Below are positions 629 through 43,931 of a stretch of DNA of 64,000 bases, one piece after another. Under the pieces are notes generated by a model that saw nothing but the letters and a program-made list of their open reading frames with translations, made no database searches and was not told where the DNA came from. The translations under genes and the position numbers were made by a program. Position 1 is the first letter of the stretch; every line of letters starts with the position of its first letter. The DNA comes from an uncultured Nitrososphaerota archaeon (lineage in GTDB: Archaea; Thermoproteota; Nitrososphaeria; Nitrososphaerales; Gagatemarchaeaceae), in contig OY969807.1 of NCBI GenBank assembly GCA_963703285.1, positions 320,001 through 384,000 on the forward strand, read 5' to 3'.

Positions 629-841
629 ATGAGAATGTCCGTCTCGGAGGTGGTCGAGATAGCCAAGAAGTTTGTAAGATCACAAGCGGGCTACTCCAGT
701 GTAGAAATTGCATCCGTAGACGCTCTCACACAGCAAGGGAGATGGAAGGTGCTCGCTGACGTGGGATTATTTGCGACCATGAGAAAGGAACTGATAATTG
801 ATGATAGCGATGGAAACATCCTCTCCTACAGGCAAATTTGA
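629..841 (+). CDS. Small hypothetical protein, PepSY-like alpha/beta pattern
   Basis: 70 aa; 'EVVEIAKKF...WKV...IIDDSDGNILSY' resembles PepSY-like folds; lower GC than host genes. Confidence 0.55.
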   Translation: MRMSVSEVVEIAKKFVRSQAGYSSVEIASVDALTQQGRWKVLADVGLFATMRKELIIDDSDGNILSYRQI

Positions 842-1226
842 AAGAATTTCTGAGTATCTAAAGATGCGGGACCAGTATTACAAGAACGCTGAAGAGTTCA
901 TAGGGCGTGGGGAGCTAAGAAAATCATCAGAATTACTCTGGGGTGCAATCTCGCAGAGCATCAAGGCGTTGGGTATACTTGCAAATCAAGAACTCGTCAG
1001 TCATAGGGACTTCTTTCCGTTTATGCAGCAGCTTTCTAAAGAATTAGGCGATCCCAGCTTATACGAGGATTTTGTCGACCTTAACACTCTACACAGAAAT
1101 TTCTATGACGAGTTTATTCCTCCTGAAGCATTTCCACTTTTTTTCAGAAAGGCCACTCTTTATGTCAAGAGAATCAATGACCTGATTCAAACCAAAGTAG
1201 GAAGACCAGCCAGGGAGAAAGGGTAA
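810..1226 (+). CDS. PaREP1-family (HEPN-like) protein
   Basis: 'YYKNAEEFIGRGELRKSSELLWGA...SHRD...LHRNFYD' is the PaREP1 pattern. Start is uncertain (798/801/810). Confidence 0.8.
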   Translation: METSSPTGKFERISEYLKMRDQYYKNAEEFIGRGELRKSSELLWGAISQSIKALGILANQELVSHRDFFPFMQQLSKELGDPSLYEDFVDLNTLHRNFYDEFIPPEAFPLFFRKATLYVKRINDLIQTKVGRPAREKG

Positions 1227-38397: not shown

Positions 38398-38823
38398 ATG
38401 ACCCGGCCGACCCCTCCCCGATTCGAGGACGTCTCCCTCGAGGTCGAGGCCCTCGTCCAGGCGCTGTCGAACGCCACCTCCATCGCAGGTCCTGCCCCGC
38501 CCGTCGAAGCCGACCTATGGAGAATCTACGCGCGGAGCGAGGTGGCGGTCGCCAGGCTGAAGTACCGCCTCGGAGTTGAGCGGCCAGGCGCCTTCTCCAC
38601 GCTTCCTCGGCCCGAACTTCCAGCAGAACTCCTTCCCGAGGCGCTGGCCGACATGAGGAAGGCCGCCTCGCTGATGCGCTCGGGTGAACCCGACGCCGCC
38701 CTCGGGTCGCTCAGGAGCGCCAGGACCTCTCTTCGGGCGTACCTTGCAGAAATCGAGCGTGTCAGGAGGAGGGAGAAGCGGAAGGCTGCTGCTTCGCGGA
38801 GGCCTTCTTCGTCCTCTTCTTAG
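38398..38823 (+). CDS. Hypothetical helical protein
   Basis: ATG 38398 downstream of TTTAATAA; 3' part of ORF 37963-38823. Confidence 0.6.
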   Translation: MTRPTPPRFEDVSLEVEALVQALSNATSIAGPAPPVEADLWRIYARSEVAVARLKYRLGVERPGAFSTLPRPELPAELLPEALADMRKAASLMRSGEPDAALGSLRSARTSLRAYLAEIERVRRREKRKAAASRRPSSSSS

Positions 38824-39295
38824 TCTCCTTGGGCGCGGGTTTCTCCTCCTCTGCGGGAGGTTCGGGGGCGGGCTCAGGGGCAGGCGCCTCCGCAGGCGCG
38901 GGCAGAGCTGGCTCTACCACGGGCGGGACTAGCTCCTTCGCAGGTGCCGCTTCCTCCTCGGCCGGGGCCTCTTCTTCGGGCTCCTCCTTCTTCGCGGCCT
39001 CCTCTCTCTCCTCCTTCTTCTTCCTCTCCTCCTTTTCGGCCTCCGAAGGCTCGAGTTCGAGGAGCCTCAGTTCCTTACCTTCGACCAGCACCCTGTAGTT
39101 CTTCCTTTCGCCCTTCTTCCAGAGGAACCTCTTCACGTACGTCTTCACGTGCCGCGTCCTCACGGTCTTCTTCATCGAATCGTCATCCACCGTGAGCTCC
39201 CCACCGCTCACCTGCAACTTGGCACCGACCCTCGGCTCAAGGAACTCGGCCAACTCGTCGCCGTTGTCCTTGAAGGTGCCCAGAATTATCTTCAT
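38762..39295 (-). CDS. Ribosomal protein eL22-like with a charged/Pro-rich tail
   Basis: 'ELAEFLE.R...VRTRHVKTYVKRFLWKKGERKNYRVL' resembles the eL22 core; TTATAA about 28 nt upstream of ATG 39295. Confidence 0.6.
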   Translation of the reverse strand: MKIILGTFKDNGDELAEFLEPRVGAKLQVSGGELTVDDDSMKKTVRTRHVKTYVKRFLWKKGERKNYRVLVEGKELRLLELEPSEAEKEERKKKEEREEAAKKEEPEEEAPAEEEAAPAKELVPPVVEPALPAPAEAPAPEPAPEPPAEEEKPAPKETKKRTKKASAKQQPSASPSS

Positions 39296-39330
39296 TTCCC
39301 CGACCTCTTCGGGTGTGGCATTATAACGGT

Positions 39331-40092
39331 TTAGGACGGGGCGCCCGCCGAAGGCTCCTTCTCTGTGCGGGGCGACCCGAGTCGGGGGGTCTGCGGCGGA
39401 CCCCCCTCCCTGAGCGGCCCTCCTCCGGAGTCCTGCTTTCTCAGCCTGACGTAGAGCGTCGAGAGCGCGAAACAGCAGGCCCCCAGCAACATGAGGTTCT
39501 CGTTGGTCAGCCACGTCACTCCCATCCTGTTCAGCTCGTCCGAGAACCCGACGTAGAACCAGTGATTGTCATCGAAAAATAGGATCGCCCCGAGGGCGAT
39601 GGGAGCGACCGAGACCGCCCTTAGGGAAAGAATGAAGGAGCGGGACGAGGCGAGGAACGAGGCGAAGACGAAGGCGAACATGGCGAACCAGATGTCGTCG
39701 AAGGTGTTCACGTTCTGCGTGACGCGGGGACCTGGCCAGGTTTGGGGCCAGGCGCACGGCGATGTGAACGTCCCGCAGACGTGGATGCTCCCGTAGGTGA
39801 TGAACTGGGCGAGGTAGAACATGGAGGCCGCCGGGGCTATCAGGAGCTGTATGGGGAGGGGCGTCCCTGGCTGGATGCCGTAGGAGTTTATCGACGTAGA
39901 CTGTGTTATGCCGTAGGATACGGCGCACACGATCAGCCATGAATAAGCGGCGATCGAGACGTAACGGAGGACCCGGTGATGAGCCTGAAGGAACCCCGAC
40001 AGGCGTGGTCTGAGCTTCGCCTTTGGGCTTGCGGCCCGAGCGTCGGGACCGGGAGCGCTCCCAACTATCTGGGGTGTCAACCTCAGGTGCAA
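39331..40092 (-). CDS. Hypothetical membrane protein
   Basis: Several hydrophobic segments; start uncertain. Confidence 0.55.
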   Translation of the reverse strand: MHLRLTPQIVGSAPGPDARAASPKAKLRPRLSGFLQAHHRVLRYVSIAAYSWLIVCAVSYGITQSTSINSYGIQPGTPLPIQLLIAPAASMFYLAQFITYGSIHVCGTFTSPCAWPQTWPGPRVTQNVNTFDDIWFAMFAFVFASFLASSRSFILSLRAVSVAPIALGAILFFDDNHWFYVGFSDELNRMGVTWLTNENLMLLGACCFALSTLYVRLRKQDSGGGPLREGGPPQTPRLGSPRTEKEPSAGAPS

Positions 40093-40973: not shown

Positions 40974-41007
40974 CTGTTAATAACAGTGTTAATGGAAAAG
41001 GTTAACA
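40974..41007. promoter_or_regulatory. Candidate operator palindromes between the regulator and the ZIP gene
   Basis: CTGTTA-A-TAACAG (40974-40986) and TGTTAA-N9-TTAACA (40987-41007) in an AT-rich divergent intergenic region. Confidence 0.55.
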
Positions 41008-41046
41008 TCGTTGCCATTAAATATTACATATGTTATGGCCGGCCCG

Positions 41047-41796
41047 ATGGTCGACTTCGTGGAGGCCGTGGCCCTCTCCGCCGTCATGGGCTTCTCGATA
41101 TTCATCTCTCTCCCCATCGTCCTCCGGATGCGTACAAGCAGCATATTGAACAAGCTCCTCCTCGCCGCCGCCATAGGGATACTGATCTTCCTGATGGGAG
41201 ACGTCTGGGGAGACTCCGCCGCGATAATGTTCAACGGCTCTCTGTACGGCTACGGGACCTCTCCCTACTTCGACTTGATCTTCACGGGCGCCCTCTGCTT
41301 CGGTTTCCTGGCGCTCTACTACGGCGAGAACAGGAGGAGGTCGGGGCTCTCACCCTCGCAGACGGGGCTCATCATCGCCCTTGGAATCGGATTCCAGAAC
41401 CTGACCGAGGGGCTGATATTCGGAGCCCTCGCGGCCTCGTTCGGGCTCTCTGGGGTCGCCCTCGTCGTCCTGTTCGGTTTCGTCCTGCAGAACATCACGG
41501 AGGGTTTCCCGATAGCGTCCCCCTTCCTCGGCCTTTCGGACAAGAAGCCCTGGGCGATGGCCTCTCTCTTCTTCGTGGGCGGAGTACCGACCGTCCTGGG
41601 AGGCGCCTTCGGCTTCTTCTATAGCTCCGGCGCCTTCGAGGTCTTCTTCGGGGGTCTCGCCATAGGTGCCATACTCTACGCAGTCCTGCCCATGCTGAAG
41701 TCGATGTTCAGGGACTCCGAGCACGCCGCCCAGAGGGTGACATACCTGGGCATATTCCTCGGCTTCCTCGTCGGCTTCCTGGTGAACCTGATCTGA
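41047..41796 (+). CDS. ZIP-family metal transporter
   Basis: GIGFQNLTEGL..G and LQNITEGF.I motifs (Q at the usual H position). Confidence 0.85.
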   Translation: MVDFVEAVALSAVMGFSIFISLPIVLRMRTSSILNKLLLAAAIGILIFLMGDVWGDSAAIMFNGSLYGYGTSPYFDLIFTGALCFGFLALYYGENRRRSGLSPSQTGLIIALGIGFQNLTEGLIFGALAASFGLSGVALVVLFGFVLQNITEGFPIASPFLGLSDKKPWAMASLFFVGGVPTVLGGAFGFFYSSGAFEVFFGGLAIGAILYAVLPMLKSMFRDSEHAAQRVTYLGIFLGFLVGFLVNLI

Positions 41797-41799
41797 CTG

Positions 41800-41874
41800 C
41801 TAACTTCCCGTCCTCCGCTTTCTCTTCTGGTAGGTCCTTATTGCGCGCAAGAGGTCTATCTTGCGGAAAGAGGG
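41800..41874 (-). pseudogene. Displaced duplicate of the uppS 3' end
   Basis: Translates PSFRKIDLLRAIRTYQKRKRRTGS* versus uppS PAFRKIDLLRAIRTYQKRKRRLGR*. Confidence 0.93.
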
Positions 41875-41889
41875 TCGAGTAGAGATTCA

Positions 41890-42022
41890 ATGAACATGAG
41901 TGTTCATAAGACCTAGGAAAGGAAATCCCTTGAGATAGAGGCCTTGGCCAAGCGAGGAGTAAAGGACTTTTCTCAGTGGGAACGCGCTTGGATTGGCGAA
42001 CTTGTCGCTGTTCAGGCGTTGA
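41890..42022 (+). pseudogene. Remnant ORF convergent on uppS, possibly a PD-(D/E)xK nuclease N-terminus
   Basis: MNMSVHKT*ERKSLEIEALAKRGVKDFSQWERAWIGELVAVQAL; internal TAG at 41914; 'GE..A...L' helix. Confidence 0.4.
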
Positions 42023-42814
42023 TCATCTACCTAGTCTTCGTTTCCGCTTTTGGTAGGTACGTATTGCGCGTAACAAATCAATTTTTCTAAACGCCGGCCA
42101 GTAGACGTCCATGAAGATTAGCTCGCTGTAGGCTCCCTGCCAGAGGAGGAACCCGCTCATCCTCTCCTCCCCCGAGGTGCGTATTATCAGGTCGGGCTCG
42201 GGGTTGGGCAGGTGGGATGTGTAGAGCCTACCGGCTATGGTGTCCTCTCCGATCCTCGAGGGGTCGAGCGTCCCATTCTTCACGTCCTCTGCTATCGACC
42301 TGACGACGTCCGTAATCTCGGCCCTCCCGCCGTAGGCTATGGCTATGTTCAGGAAGTGCCCGTCGTAGGCTGCGGTCCTCTCCTCCACCTCTCTCAGGAT
42401 GTCGAGGAGCGACTTGGGCAGGACGTCGAACTTGCCGATCCCCTTGACCCTCACCCTGTACTTGTAGATTCGTTCGTCCGTAAGCAGCTTCTGGAGCCTC
42501 TCCTCGATCAGCCTGAAGAGCTCCTGCACCTCCTCCGAGGTCCTCTGCAGGTTCTCGGTCGAGAGCACGTAGAGCGTTATCGATTTGATGCCGATCTCGT
42601 GGCACCAGTCGAGGAGCTTCTCGACGACGTCGGCCCCGTAGGCGTGCCCCGCGTCCACGGAGTACCTGCGGTCCTGCGCCCACCTCCTGTTGCCGTCGAG
42701 GATTATCCCGACGTGCCCCGGAATCGGGCCGTCCTCGACCTGCCAGCTCAGCCTGTTCTCGTAGAACCTGTACGCCCCGGTCGCCCTAAGCAGCCCGTCA
42801 AGCACTCGTGTCAC
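42023..42814 (-). CDS. uppS: cis-Polyprenyl diphosphate synthase
   Basis: HVGIILDGNRRWA, STEN..R, YGGR.EI, IIRTSGEER.SGFLLWQ..YSE motifs. Confidence 0.95.
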   Translation of the reverse strand: MTRVLDGLLRATGAYRFYENRLSWQVEDGPIPGHVGIILDGNRRWAQDRRYSVDAGHAYGADVVEKLLDWCHEIGIKSITLYVLSTENLQRTSEEVQELFRLIEERLQKLLTDERIYKYRVRVKGIGKFDVLPKSLLDILREVEERTAAYDGHFLNIAIAYGGRAEITDVVRSIAEDVKNGTLDPSRIGEDTIAGRLYTSHLPNPEPDLIIRTSGEERMSGFLLWQGAYSELIFMDVYWPAFRKIDLLRAIRTYQKRKRRLGR

Positions 42815-43931
42815 TCCTGAGCATCGGGTTCCTGCTCCTTATGCGGCCGTAGAGCGCGGTCAGGACGGCGAAGGCGACCGCGAGCGTCAGGAGGACGTAC
42901 GAGATGAGCAGGACCGAGCTGTTGGCCCCGCCGGTCAGGACTACCGCGAACTGGTCGACGGGCAGGTAGAGCAGGCCGAGCAGGACTATGAGGACGCCGT
43001 CCCGCCAGACCCTCCTCGACCCCCTCGCCAGGTGGGCGAGCAGCGCCCCGATGAGGTAGACCGCGTAGGCGGCCCAGACGAGGGGGATTGCCCCCTCCAT
43101 GTACCATCCCACGAGCGTCGGTCCGACGATGAGGAACTTCGCCGGGTCGGCCACCACCTGGGCGATGCCGCCCGCGTCGTTCGAGCTCATGTAGGAGTAC
43201 CCAGCCGAGAGCCCCACCAGGAAGATCAGCGTGCCAGCCACGGCCGAGAAGATCCTGAGGTAGCCGTACGGTCTCTGGCTGAGCATCGCGGCGACCGAGC
43301 GGTCCACGCCGAACCCCCTGACGAAGAACGTCGAGCCGAGTATCAGAAGGATCGCTATTCCCGCCTCGTAGGCGCGCCCGAACAGGACCAGGACGCCCGC
43401 AAAGAGGAAGATGACCCCCGGGACTCCGATTACCCACTTGGAGTATCGCTCGTCGAAGACTAGCATCCTGAGGTACCTACCCAGGACCATGTAGGTCTCC
43501 TCAACCGTCCTGCTGTGCTTGACCGCGATCCTGACCACCGAGGCGACGGGCTTCATCGACTGTATTATCGGAAGTACCTGCTCGTCCTCGGCGCCGTCGG
43601 TGACCAGGACTATCCCCGAGAACTGCCCCTTGCTTAGGATGTTCTCTATCTCCCTCTTGATCTTCCTGTCGGCGTCGACGCCGTTGTCCGGGACGCCGCA
43701 CACGATCCCTATCTCGCAGCCCTCGCCCATCGACTGGAGCCTGTCGTACTCCCTCACCGCTGCGAAGAAGGAGTTGGCGTCGGCCTCCTCCGGGTCGGAG
43801 ATGGCGAGCTGCGTGGCGGCGGCGAGGACCTGCTCCCTCCCGAAGACGGGGGTGCGGACCCTCGTCTTGCTTTCTAGGTCTCCATCCCGGTCGACCGCGA
43901 GTATGAGCAGCCTGTCCCCCTGCGCGGACAT
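42798..43931 (-). CDS. DUF373-family membrane protein
   Basis: VDRDGDL, DPEEADAN, DGAEDE..LPIIQS motifs. Confidence 0.88.
   Translation of the reverse strand: MSAQGDRLLILAVDRDGDLESKTRVRTPVFGREQVLAAATQLAISDPEEADANSFFAAVREYDRLQSMGEGCEIGIVCGVPDNGVDADRKIKREIENILSKGQFSGIVLVTDGAEDEQVLPIIQSMKPVASVVRIAVKHSRTVEETYMVLGRYLRMLVFDERYSKWVIGVPGVIFLFAGVLVLFGRAYEAGIAILLILGSTFFVRGFGVDRSVAAMLSQRPYGYLRIFSAVAGTLIFLVGLSAGYSYMSSNDAGGIAQVVADPAKFLIVGPTLVGWYMEGAIPLVWAAYAVYLIGALLAHLARGSRRVWRDGVLIVLLGLLYLPVDQFAVVLTGGANSSVLLISYVLLTLAVAFAVLTALYGRIRSRNPMLRSDTSA

Follow-up and report, generated by a model that had tools for sequence, protein, structure and literature searches.

Why would a conserved archaeal gene appear to end twice? 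The question is raised by uppS in a 64,000-nucleotide stretch of an uncultured Nitrososphaerota archaeon (contig OY969807.1, positions 320,001 to 384,000; hereafter the window), where the gene is followed on the same strand by a second copy of its own 3' end written in different codons. Our analysis leads us to consider it very probable that a compact homing-endonuclease cassette was once inserted exactly before uppS codon 242 and that the segment at 41869..42091 is what erosion has left of it. With the same high confidence we propose that the complete cassette, about 0.53-0.56 kb long, is made up of a 22-codon in-frame replacement tail and an opposite-strand gene for a single-motif LAGLIDADG endonuclease.

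The gene is a 263-codon open reading frame (ORF) at 42023..42814 on the minus strand, which codes for a cis-prenyltransferase of the UppS family (Pfam Prenyltransf PF01255, E 1.2e-74), and it is the only uppS gene found in the window's own genome (G000), a single contig of 2.25 Mb. Its body, codons 1-241 (42092..42814, minus strand), is native and GC-rich, with a GC content at third codon positions (GC3) of 0.89, and GC3 falls to 0.27 (6/22) in the last 22 codons; at p = 0.89, finding at most 6 GC-ending codons in 22 has a binomial probability of 1.8e-11. The initial annotation had described a GC3-rich uppS with an AT-rich end, and sliding GC3 bears this out and places the break at codon 242. 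Codons 242-263 and the stop (42023..42091, minus strand, GC 0.377) are in frame with the body and form what we read as the cassette-borne replacement tail. The second tail (41800..41868, minus strand) starts 154 bp past the uppS stop. The two tails, read from 42091 to 42023 and from 41868 to 41800, share their opening 19 residues, FRKIDLLRAIRTYQKRKRR, and end in LGR* and TGS*, respectively; by hand count 13 of the 19 shared codons differ, all synonymously, and nucleotide identity between the tails is 45/69. A second tail with the same 19 residues in synonymously different codons had also been reported at the outset; it is confirmed by the codons and by protein searches that recover it independently (E 8.5e-7 and 1e-7), and the coordinates first given for the region (41800-42097) and for the second tail (41874-41800) are correct to within 6 bases. 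The 223 bp between both F242 codons (41869..42091) occur only once in the genome. For the 154 bp between the tails, an RNA element was considered and rejected, as Rfam gives no match in 41000-43000 at E <= 1, and so was a miniature inverted-repeat transposable element or another repeat family, as no second copy is present in the genome. The C-terminal 22 residues of UppS are conserved throughout the order, so a foreign tail can encode the same peptide without anything special. The replacement tail carries the C-terminal R-x-G motif, here RLG, which bioRxiv 10.1101/139675 describes as needed for the activity of homomeric cis-prenyltransferases.

Which of the two tails is native can be read from relatives that lack the cassette. 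Searching 41 genomes, including the window's own, gave a uppS match in 37. Two of them, G010 and G001, have uppS running without a break into the GC-rich tail, and within a few bases of it ends the convergent ZIP-like gene that also follows the second tail in the window; the ortholog of this gene directly follows uppS in G010, G001, G004 and G015. In the window it is a convergent membrane gene at 41011..41796 (plus strand), only weakly ZIP-like (Pfam Zip, E 2.6e-5, under the gathering score), and it is the original right-hand neighbour of uppS. The second, GC-rich tail of the window matches the native tails of G010 and G001 at 56/69 bases, and the in-frame AT-rich tail only at 44-47/69; the exception is the pair G004 and G015, whose mosaic tails match the new tail at 52/69 and the old one at 51-52/69. 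Furthermore, the downstream tails show non-synonymous damage of the kind expected in relics: intact uppS genes end in MGR* or LGR*, and the displaced copies end in TGS* in the window and MDR* in G009, have lost the stop in G014 and are heavily decayed in G002. Because of the empty-site relatives, the difference between 56/69 and 44-47/69 and this relic damage, the direction of the event is established, and comparison of the sequences identifies the GC-rich copy as the displaced native end and the AT-rich copy as the incoming one. The comparison with close relatives that the initial annotation had proposed thus finds the GC-rich tail in place in G010 and G001, with the same downstream neighbour. 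In the cassette-free genomes G004 (L009) and G015 (L010), uppS codons 242-263 are a patchwork of cassette-type and native-type codons, the former including the first two codons and four in the middle; these mosaic tails could be resistant alleles that persisted once the cassette was lost, or could represent the source lineage of the cassette tail.

More complete versions of the insert are found in other genomes of the genus. Inserts beginning at the same codon measure 551 bp in G009, 556 bp in G014 and 546 bp in G002, each followed by a relic tail; those of G009 and G014 are AT-rich and that of G002 is GC-rich. The 223-bp insert of the window aligns to both ends of these long inserts and lacks about 334 bp internally, a deletion that shows up against all three as a gap at about columns 119-453 of the alignment. 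Read on the opposite strand, the long inserts contain a broken gene, of which the window retains about the first 38 codons and the last 15 bases, the catalytic motif having been lost. The relic of the 5' part (41869..42007, plus strand) comprises about 38 residues and ends just before the catalytic G-E-G, and the decayed LAGLIDADG endonuclease gene has its final 15 bases, placed by alignment to the G009, G014 and G002 inserts, at 42008..42022 (plus strand), where its stop abuts the uppS stop. Window positions 41917-42030 match residues 1-38 of the G014 pseudogene fragment with 76% identity (E 3.5e-11).

The nuclease gene is whole in G225, which belongs to a sister genus of the same family, where it forms a 151-codon ORF (L034:714-1169, minus strand; GC3 0.39). 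The order in G225 is an AT-rich in-frame replacement tail, whose first three codons are the same as in the window's tail, then the opposite-strand nuclease ORF, then the GC-rich displaced native tail; the nuclease stop abuts the uppS stop (uppS ends at 713 and the ORF spans 714..1169), and the nuclease start is 2 bases from the relic tail, which leaves scarcely any space for a promoter. The stop-to-stop abutment is likewise seen in G009, and a 1.1-kb metagenome contig (L050) has the same layout in a decayed state. The anatomy of the cassette is therefore established, with a nuclease ORF between the inserted in-frame end and the displaced native end that is intact in G225 and decayed in G009, G014, G002, L050 and the window. 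A search for a relative with an intact nuclease between the tails had been suggested in the initial annotation, and G225 carries an intact 151-residue LAGLIDADG-type ORF exactly there. The proposal made in the same annotation, that a mobile cassette inserted into uppS, brought its own divergent C-terminus and displaced the native end, is supported by the empty sites, by G225 and by the GC3 break. An overlapping-gene constraint behind the odd codons was also considered and was rejected, since the nuclease stop abuts the uppS stop and the gene does not overlap the tail. Outside these genomes, a 172-residue protein of a representative protein library (P0006) is 49-50% identical to the G225 ORF, and its last ~30 residues seem to resemble an antisense reading of a uppS tail.

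The inactivating lesions differ between G009 and G014: a TGA stop is present only in G009, and an indel of 2 nucleotides stands against one of 1 nucleotide. The copies form a decay series that comprises the intact gene of G225, the frameshifts and stop of G009 and G014, the 334-bp deletion of the window, and the GC-rich insert of G002 with its ruined old tail. A cycle of nuclease gain and decay is usual for homing endonuclease genes, and the series fits such a cycle. G002 may hold the oldest insertion, to judge by the composition of its insert and by how far its relic tail has decayed. The feature in the window is a dead scar rather than a live element, because most of the nuclease gene has been deleted there.

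Several lines of evidence point to the family of the encoded protein. A single-sequence search of the PDB with the G225 protein gave nothing useful, and a word-index homologue search recovered only its own cluster (1 match among 14 candidates). The G014 and G002 pseudogene fragments and the window's 48-residue antisense ORF gave nothing relevant in Pfam, the sole match, to a coagulation-factor domain (E 0.17), being taken as chance, and a paralogue from G020 matched LAGLIDADG_3 at E 0.24, below the cut-off. A family profile built from four sequences had I-MsoI (E 0.004) and I-CvuI (E 0.07, covering 111/154 profile positions) as its top PDB matches, and gave 677 matches at E <= 0.001 among 1.84 billion representative proteins. 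We then aligned 70 sequences, namely 5 locus-derived ORFs and 65 of the 150 matches listed, picked for single-domain length; among these length-selected members, 22/70 carry Pfam LAGLIDADG_1 and 10/70 LAGLIDADG_3 at E <= 0.001. The 70-sequence profile matches I-MsoI (3.6e-21), I-CvuI (5e-14) and I-CreI (about 1e-10) in the PDB over nearly the full length. The motif G39-E40-G41 is invariant in the 4-sequence alignment, at least 90% conserved in the 70-sequence alignment, and aligns to the catalytic GDG of I-MsoI.

Modelling of the structure agrees with the profiles. The AlphaFold2 model of the G225 protein made from the 70-sequence alignment has a predicted local distance difference test (pLDDT) of 89.6 and a predicted template modelling (TM) score of 0.83, and it contains the alpha-beta-beta-alpha-beta-beta-alpha core fold. 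Foldseek gave 46 PDB matches at E <= 0.001, and among the matches listed all are LAGLIDADG endonucleases (TM 0.41-0.56), led by I-CreI, I-MsoI and I-CvuI (E from 2.6e-5, probability 1.00, TM 0.49-0.56). A homodimer model scores 0.72, and the best control 0.00; this mark is reached by 20/30 proteins solved as pairs and by 1/23 solved as single chains. The homodimer runs show 100% contact agreement and a partner pLDDT of at least 80, with interface residues 27-40 corresponding to the LAGLIDADG motif helix, but the homodimer result may reflect only a likeness to the solved I-CreI dimers. Profiles and predicted fold establish the protein family, and we conclude from these and from the motif that the gene probably encodes a divergent single-motif LAGLIDADG endonuclease.

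The cassette is also patchily distributed and less diverged than the genomes that carry it. It is present in 4/20 genomes of the genus having a uppS match; the others yielded no second tail and no match to the nuclease, several of these cassette-free genomes being only 54-90% complete. A presence/absence polymorphism at one site among close relatives is thus established. A 107-residue open segment of the broken gene, used as query against 401 genomes from the order, gave matches in 9 genomes at a cut-off of E <= 0.01, G225 among them; those in G053 and G250 were marginal (E about 0.009). The wider census of GTDB species genomes and metagenomes relied on two short peptide patterns, which miss divergent copies; 95 pattern matches in the species genomes led to 3 loci and 112 in the metagenomes to 1 locus. 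The uppS bodies of the window's genome, G009 and G014 share 83-85% nucleotide identity and only 61-65% of third positions (148-156/241), and the old tails (52-59/69) and the downstream gene (76-80%) have diverged as much as the host DNA. The element, now non-coding in both G009 and G014, is about 89% identical between them over roughly 560 bp; the window's new tail agrees with that of G009 at 68/69 bases and with that of G014 at 65/69, and the new tails agree at 19-22 of their 22 third positions. Since the element is about 89% identical where uppS third positions are 61-65% identical, the cassette is, judged by divergence, younger than the split of its hosts.

A related arrangement is found at a second target, a tRNA gene. 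Paralogues that are 31-34% identical to the G225 protein adjoin the 3' end of tRNA-Ala(TGC) convergently in G009 (L041:1435-1988), G020 (L037:1295-1819) and G001 (L052:1017-2040), and each locus keeps, past the nuclease start, a relic of the T-arm and of the 3' acceptor strand of the tRNA. In G001 the nuclease gene is present twice in tandem, the copies being separated by a degenerate T-arm-like stretch, and the distal relic is identical to the in-place tRNA 3' piece. The relic of G020 departs from the in-place copy at 3/28 bases, two of these differences forming a compensatory pair in the T-stem. In the G009 relic the T-loop is the variant found in G000, whose tRNA is free of the cassette, and this gives the same event direction as at uppS. 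The window itself contains no tRNA. In G000 (L065:1449-1545, outside the window), G004 (L062) and G009 (L064), tRNA-Ala(TGC) has an insertion of ~22 bases between the anticodon stem and the T-arm, which may be a non-canonical intron; its position is exactly where the relic of the tRNA-type cassette begins, and G001, G008 and G020 are without it.

How such a cassette could spread can be proposed by reference to other homing endonucleases; we infer the following steps because they are established for homing endonucleases generally. A dimer of the endonuclease would cut cassette-free uppS alleles near codons 241/242, and repair off the carrier allele would copy the cassette in. The carried tail would keep uppS functional through the conserved C-terminal RxG motif. 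Synonymous recoding of the tail and the distance now put between the gene body and its old tail would together abolish the recognition site at both junctions, so that carriers would be immune; by analogy, the recoded tail would itself resist the nuclease, as the initial annotation had considered plausible. After fixation, the nuclease gene would decay. A broader proposal, to which we give even odds, is that an active family of minimal LAGLIDADG cassettes invades the 3' ends of essential chromosomal genes (uppS and tRNA-Ala) without an intron or intein, each bringing a rewritten end that both rescues the gene and immunizes the carrier.

Several observations weigh against the homing-cassette interpretation. 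All of the nuclease-dependent steps are extrapolated, and Pfam finds 0 families in the G225 protein at E <= 10. A palindrome at the junction is not significant, with 6/15 half-site matches where 7.7% of gene positions reach 7 or more. The AT-richness of the tail is in line with the rest of the cassette, whose overall GC is about 0.50 compared with 0.59-0.62 in the gene body (the per-locus GC3 table covers the loci other than L027 and L028), and it could reflect donor composition rather than selected recoding. Recoding is not universal in the cassette family either, because the new and relic tRNA 3' pieces of G001 are identical. No co-conversion tract was seen upstream of codon 242: over codons 211-241, third positions agree at 21-24/31 in every pair, empty-site pairs included. 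Ordinary between-species recombination could be an alternative source of the high identity of the element.

Some of these points bear on a different account, in which ordinary horizontal transfer by homology-facilitated illegitimate recombination, with one crossover in uppS and one illegitimate join, brought in the new end and the LAGLIDADG gene was only a passenger. The missing co-conversion tract and the insignificant junction symmetry suit it, and so does the uniformly foreign composition of the element, which makes a purposeful recoding of the tail unnecessary. We nevertheless regard it as unlikely: the codon-242 junction recurs in two genera (five genomes) and in contig L050, the nuclease genes at this recurring junction are only 49-57% identical, paralogues show this layout at another target as well, tRNA-Ala, and the catalytic G-E-G is invariant. 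A recurring junction, a second target and a conserved G-E-G make the pattern that of a site-specific nuclease and not of repeated accidents. It is still less probable, and in our judgement very unlikely, that the LAGLIDADG protein has been domesticated and is kept beside uppS and tRNA-Ala to bind DNA or to regulate, without cleaving. Some maturases and regulators are co-opted LAGLIDADG proteins, and the failure of Pfam models to recognize this protein could be read in that sense, but the gene is pseudogenized or deleted in 4/5 of the uppS-linked genomes and is absent from most of the genus. With pseudogenes and patchy presence, selfish gain and decay fits better than a host function.

Two further readings concern the duplicated end itself. 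A duplicated gene 3' end is the classic signature of site-specific integration, and the locus might then be the footprint of an integrase-type element with its attachment (att) site at the 3' end of uppS, later excised or deleted. This we hold to be extremely improbable, given that complete copies in the genus measure only 546-556 bp and contain a single ORF, that the G225 copy is one 456-bp ORF plus a tail, which leaves no room for an integrase or other recombinase gene, and that the repeats, at 45/69 bases, have no exact core and are unlike att sites; the sole encoded protein has a predicted nuclease fold of the I-CreI type. Practically negligible is the inverse scenario that the initial annotation had named as the one that would overturn it, with the AT-rich tail ancestral and the GC-rich copy a fragment of a paralogue or an assembly chimera. 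Only G004 and G015, with continuous tails sharing some AT-type codons, lean towards it. It is contradicted by G010 and G001, where uppS itself ends in the GC-rich tail ahead of the same downstream gene, and by the identities of 56/69 against 44-47/69; moreover, the genome is a single contig with one insert copy and one uppS gene, and the same layout is found in four other genomes and one metagenome contig. A homing-endonuclease cassette thus remains our interpretation of the locus. An intron or intein was also rejected as an explanation: Rfam over 41000-43000 gave no match and no intron family at E <= 1, and the uppS frame stops before the nuclease gene, which is on the other strand.

Compared with known systems, the G225 protein resembles I-CreI, I-MsoI and I-CvuI in its fold (predicted here), in its length of about 150 residues, in a motif helix with an acidic G-(D/E)-G, and in dimerization through that helix (also predicted here). 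These three enzymes are encoded within group I introns of organellar rRNA genes, whereas the G225 nuclease stands by itself and depends on the gene end carried with it, splicing playing no part; the sequences are only 11-18% identical, and Pfam misses the G225 protein. Inteins, and archaeal rRNA and tRNA introns with LAGLIDADG genes, solve the same problem of invading an essential gene without destroying it, and the usual view is that a homing endonuclease can reside in a conserved essential gene only with the help of a self-splicing intron or intein, according to PMC3943268. Introns and inteins restore the gene by RNA or protein splicing, whereas uppS is restored at the DNA level by the carried end. 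In the T4-like phages, the Seg and Mob nucleases of "intronless homing" are free-standing beside their target gene, flanking DNA is co-converted, and carriers are thought to be protected through target sequence differences, as outlined in PMC2330249 and PMC2790892. As in the uppS cassette, the nuclease gene stands alone and adjoins its target gene; unlike it, the phage nucleases are of GIY-YIG or HNH type and intergenic, involve no duplication or replacement of a gene end, and spread in co-infection.

The closest counterparts are the mORF gene hybrids of fungal mitochondria, in which, as the sections of PMC3630166 on these genes report, a LAGLIDADG or GIY-YIG ORF lies between an inserted and a displaced native C-terminus. 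They were described first in Allomyces macrogynus atp6, later in Glomus atp6, atp9, cox2 and nad3, and further in Rhizopus atp9 and Mortierella cox2 (PMC3630166, same sections). In them, as in the uppS cassette, a foreign C-terminal copy is fused in frame and the native copy is closer to relatives, and the inserted copy is divergent in nucleotides yet similar in protein, to judge from that text (PMC3630166). The uppS cassette differs in being in an archaeal chromosome, not an organelle, in its size of only about 0.53 kb, in the use of the same layout by paralogues at a tRNA gene, and in the opposite-strand, stop-to-stop position of the nuclease, the fungal ORFs lying on the same strand and, for atp6 and nad3, in phase, as the same sections state (PMC3630166). 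A literature search that did not cover most subscription journals gave no published description of free-standing LAGLIDADG cassettes that replace a gene end in the chromosomes of archaea or bacteria, or of one at uppS. To our knowledge, then, this is a known kind of selfish element in a setting so far undescribed.

Other features were observed nearby and in relatives. In G008 (L018), one extra base in uppS codons about 252-278 shifts the frame, so that the RxG motif is lost and the ORF extends to 278 codons, which is either a real defect or an assembly error. In two incomplete assemblies uppS is seemingly split by a TGA (G011:C5:890155-890944) or seemingly in several fragments on two contigs (G022:C13/C14). 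The window's own genome has, outside the window, an intact free-standing LAGLIDADG-like ORF of 171 residues (L044:1315-1830, minus strand; G000:C1 about 645203-645718) that overlaps the start of an RNase H-like ORF, and weaker LAGLIDADG matches (G000:C1:1702707-1703609 and 1720981-1721271) inside open frames of about 586 residues, which may be inteins. A distant family member in G228 (L038:1150-1677, minus strand; 175 residues, 24% identical) has a different layout: it overlaps the start of a 234-residue membrane-protein gene on the same strand and is not at a gene 3' end. Lastly, the window encodes a Lys/Glu-rich protein at 38762..39514 (minus strand) whose counterpart is directly downstream of uppS in L011, L018, L034 and L050; as this gene adjoins uppS elsewhere in the family, the ZIP-like gene and its neighbours intervene in only part of the genus.

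The presence of such a cassette in an archaeal chromosome suggests that carrying a spare gene end is a general strategy and not an organellar oddity, and the archaeal version is very compact, opposite-strand and found at both a protein gene and a tRNA gene. In practical terms, the locus offers an intact candidate enzyme with a defined natural target, as well as a natural set of presumably cut, presumably resistant and decayed alleles for specificity tests. For annotators, an abrupt break in codon usage at a gene end with a nearby duplicate of that end is a mark of such events. Were the proposed active cassette family real, G004 and G015 would preserve, in their mosaic uppS tails, resistant alleles that outlasted a cassette since lost, and the full cycle of gain, decay, loss and resistance would be readable inside one genus.

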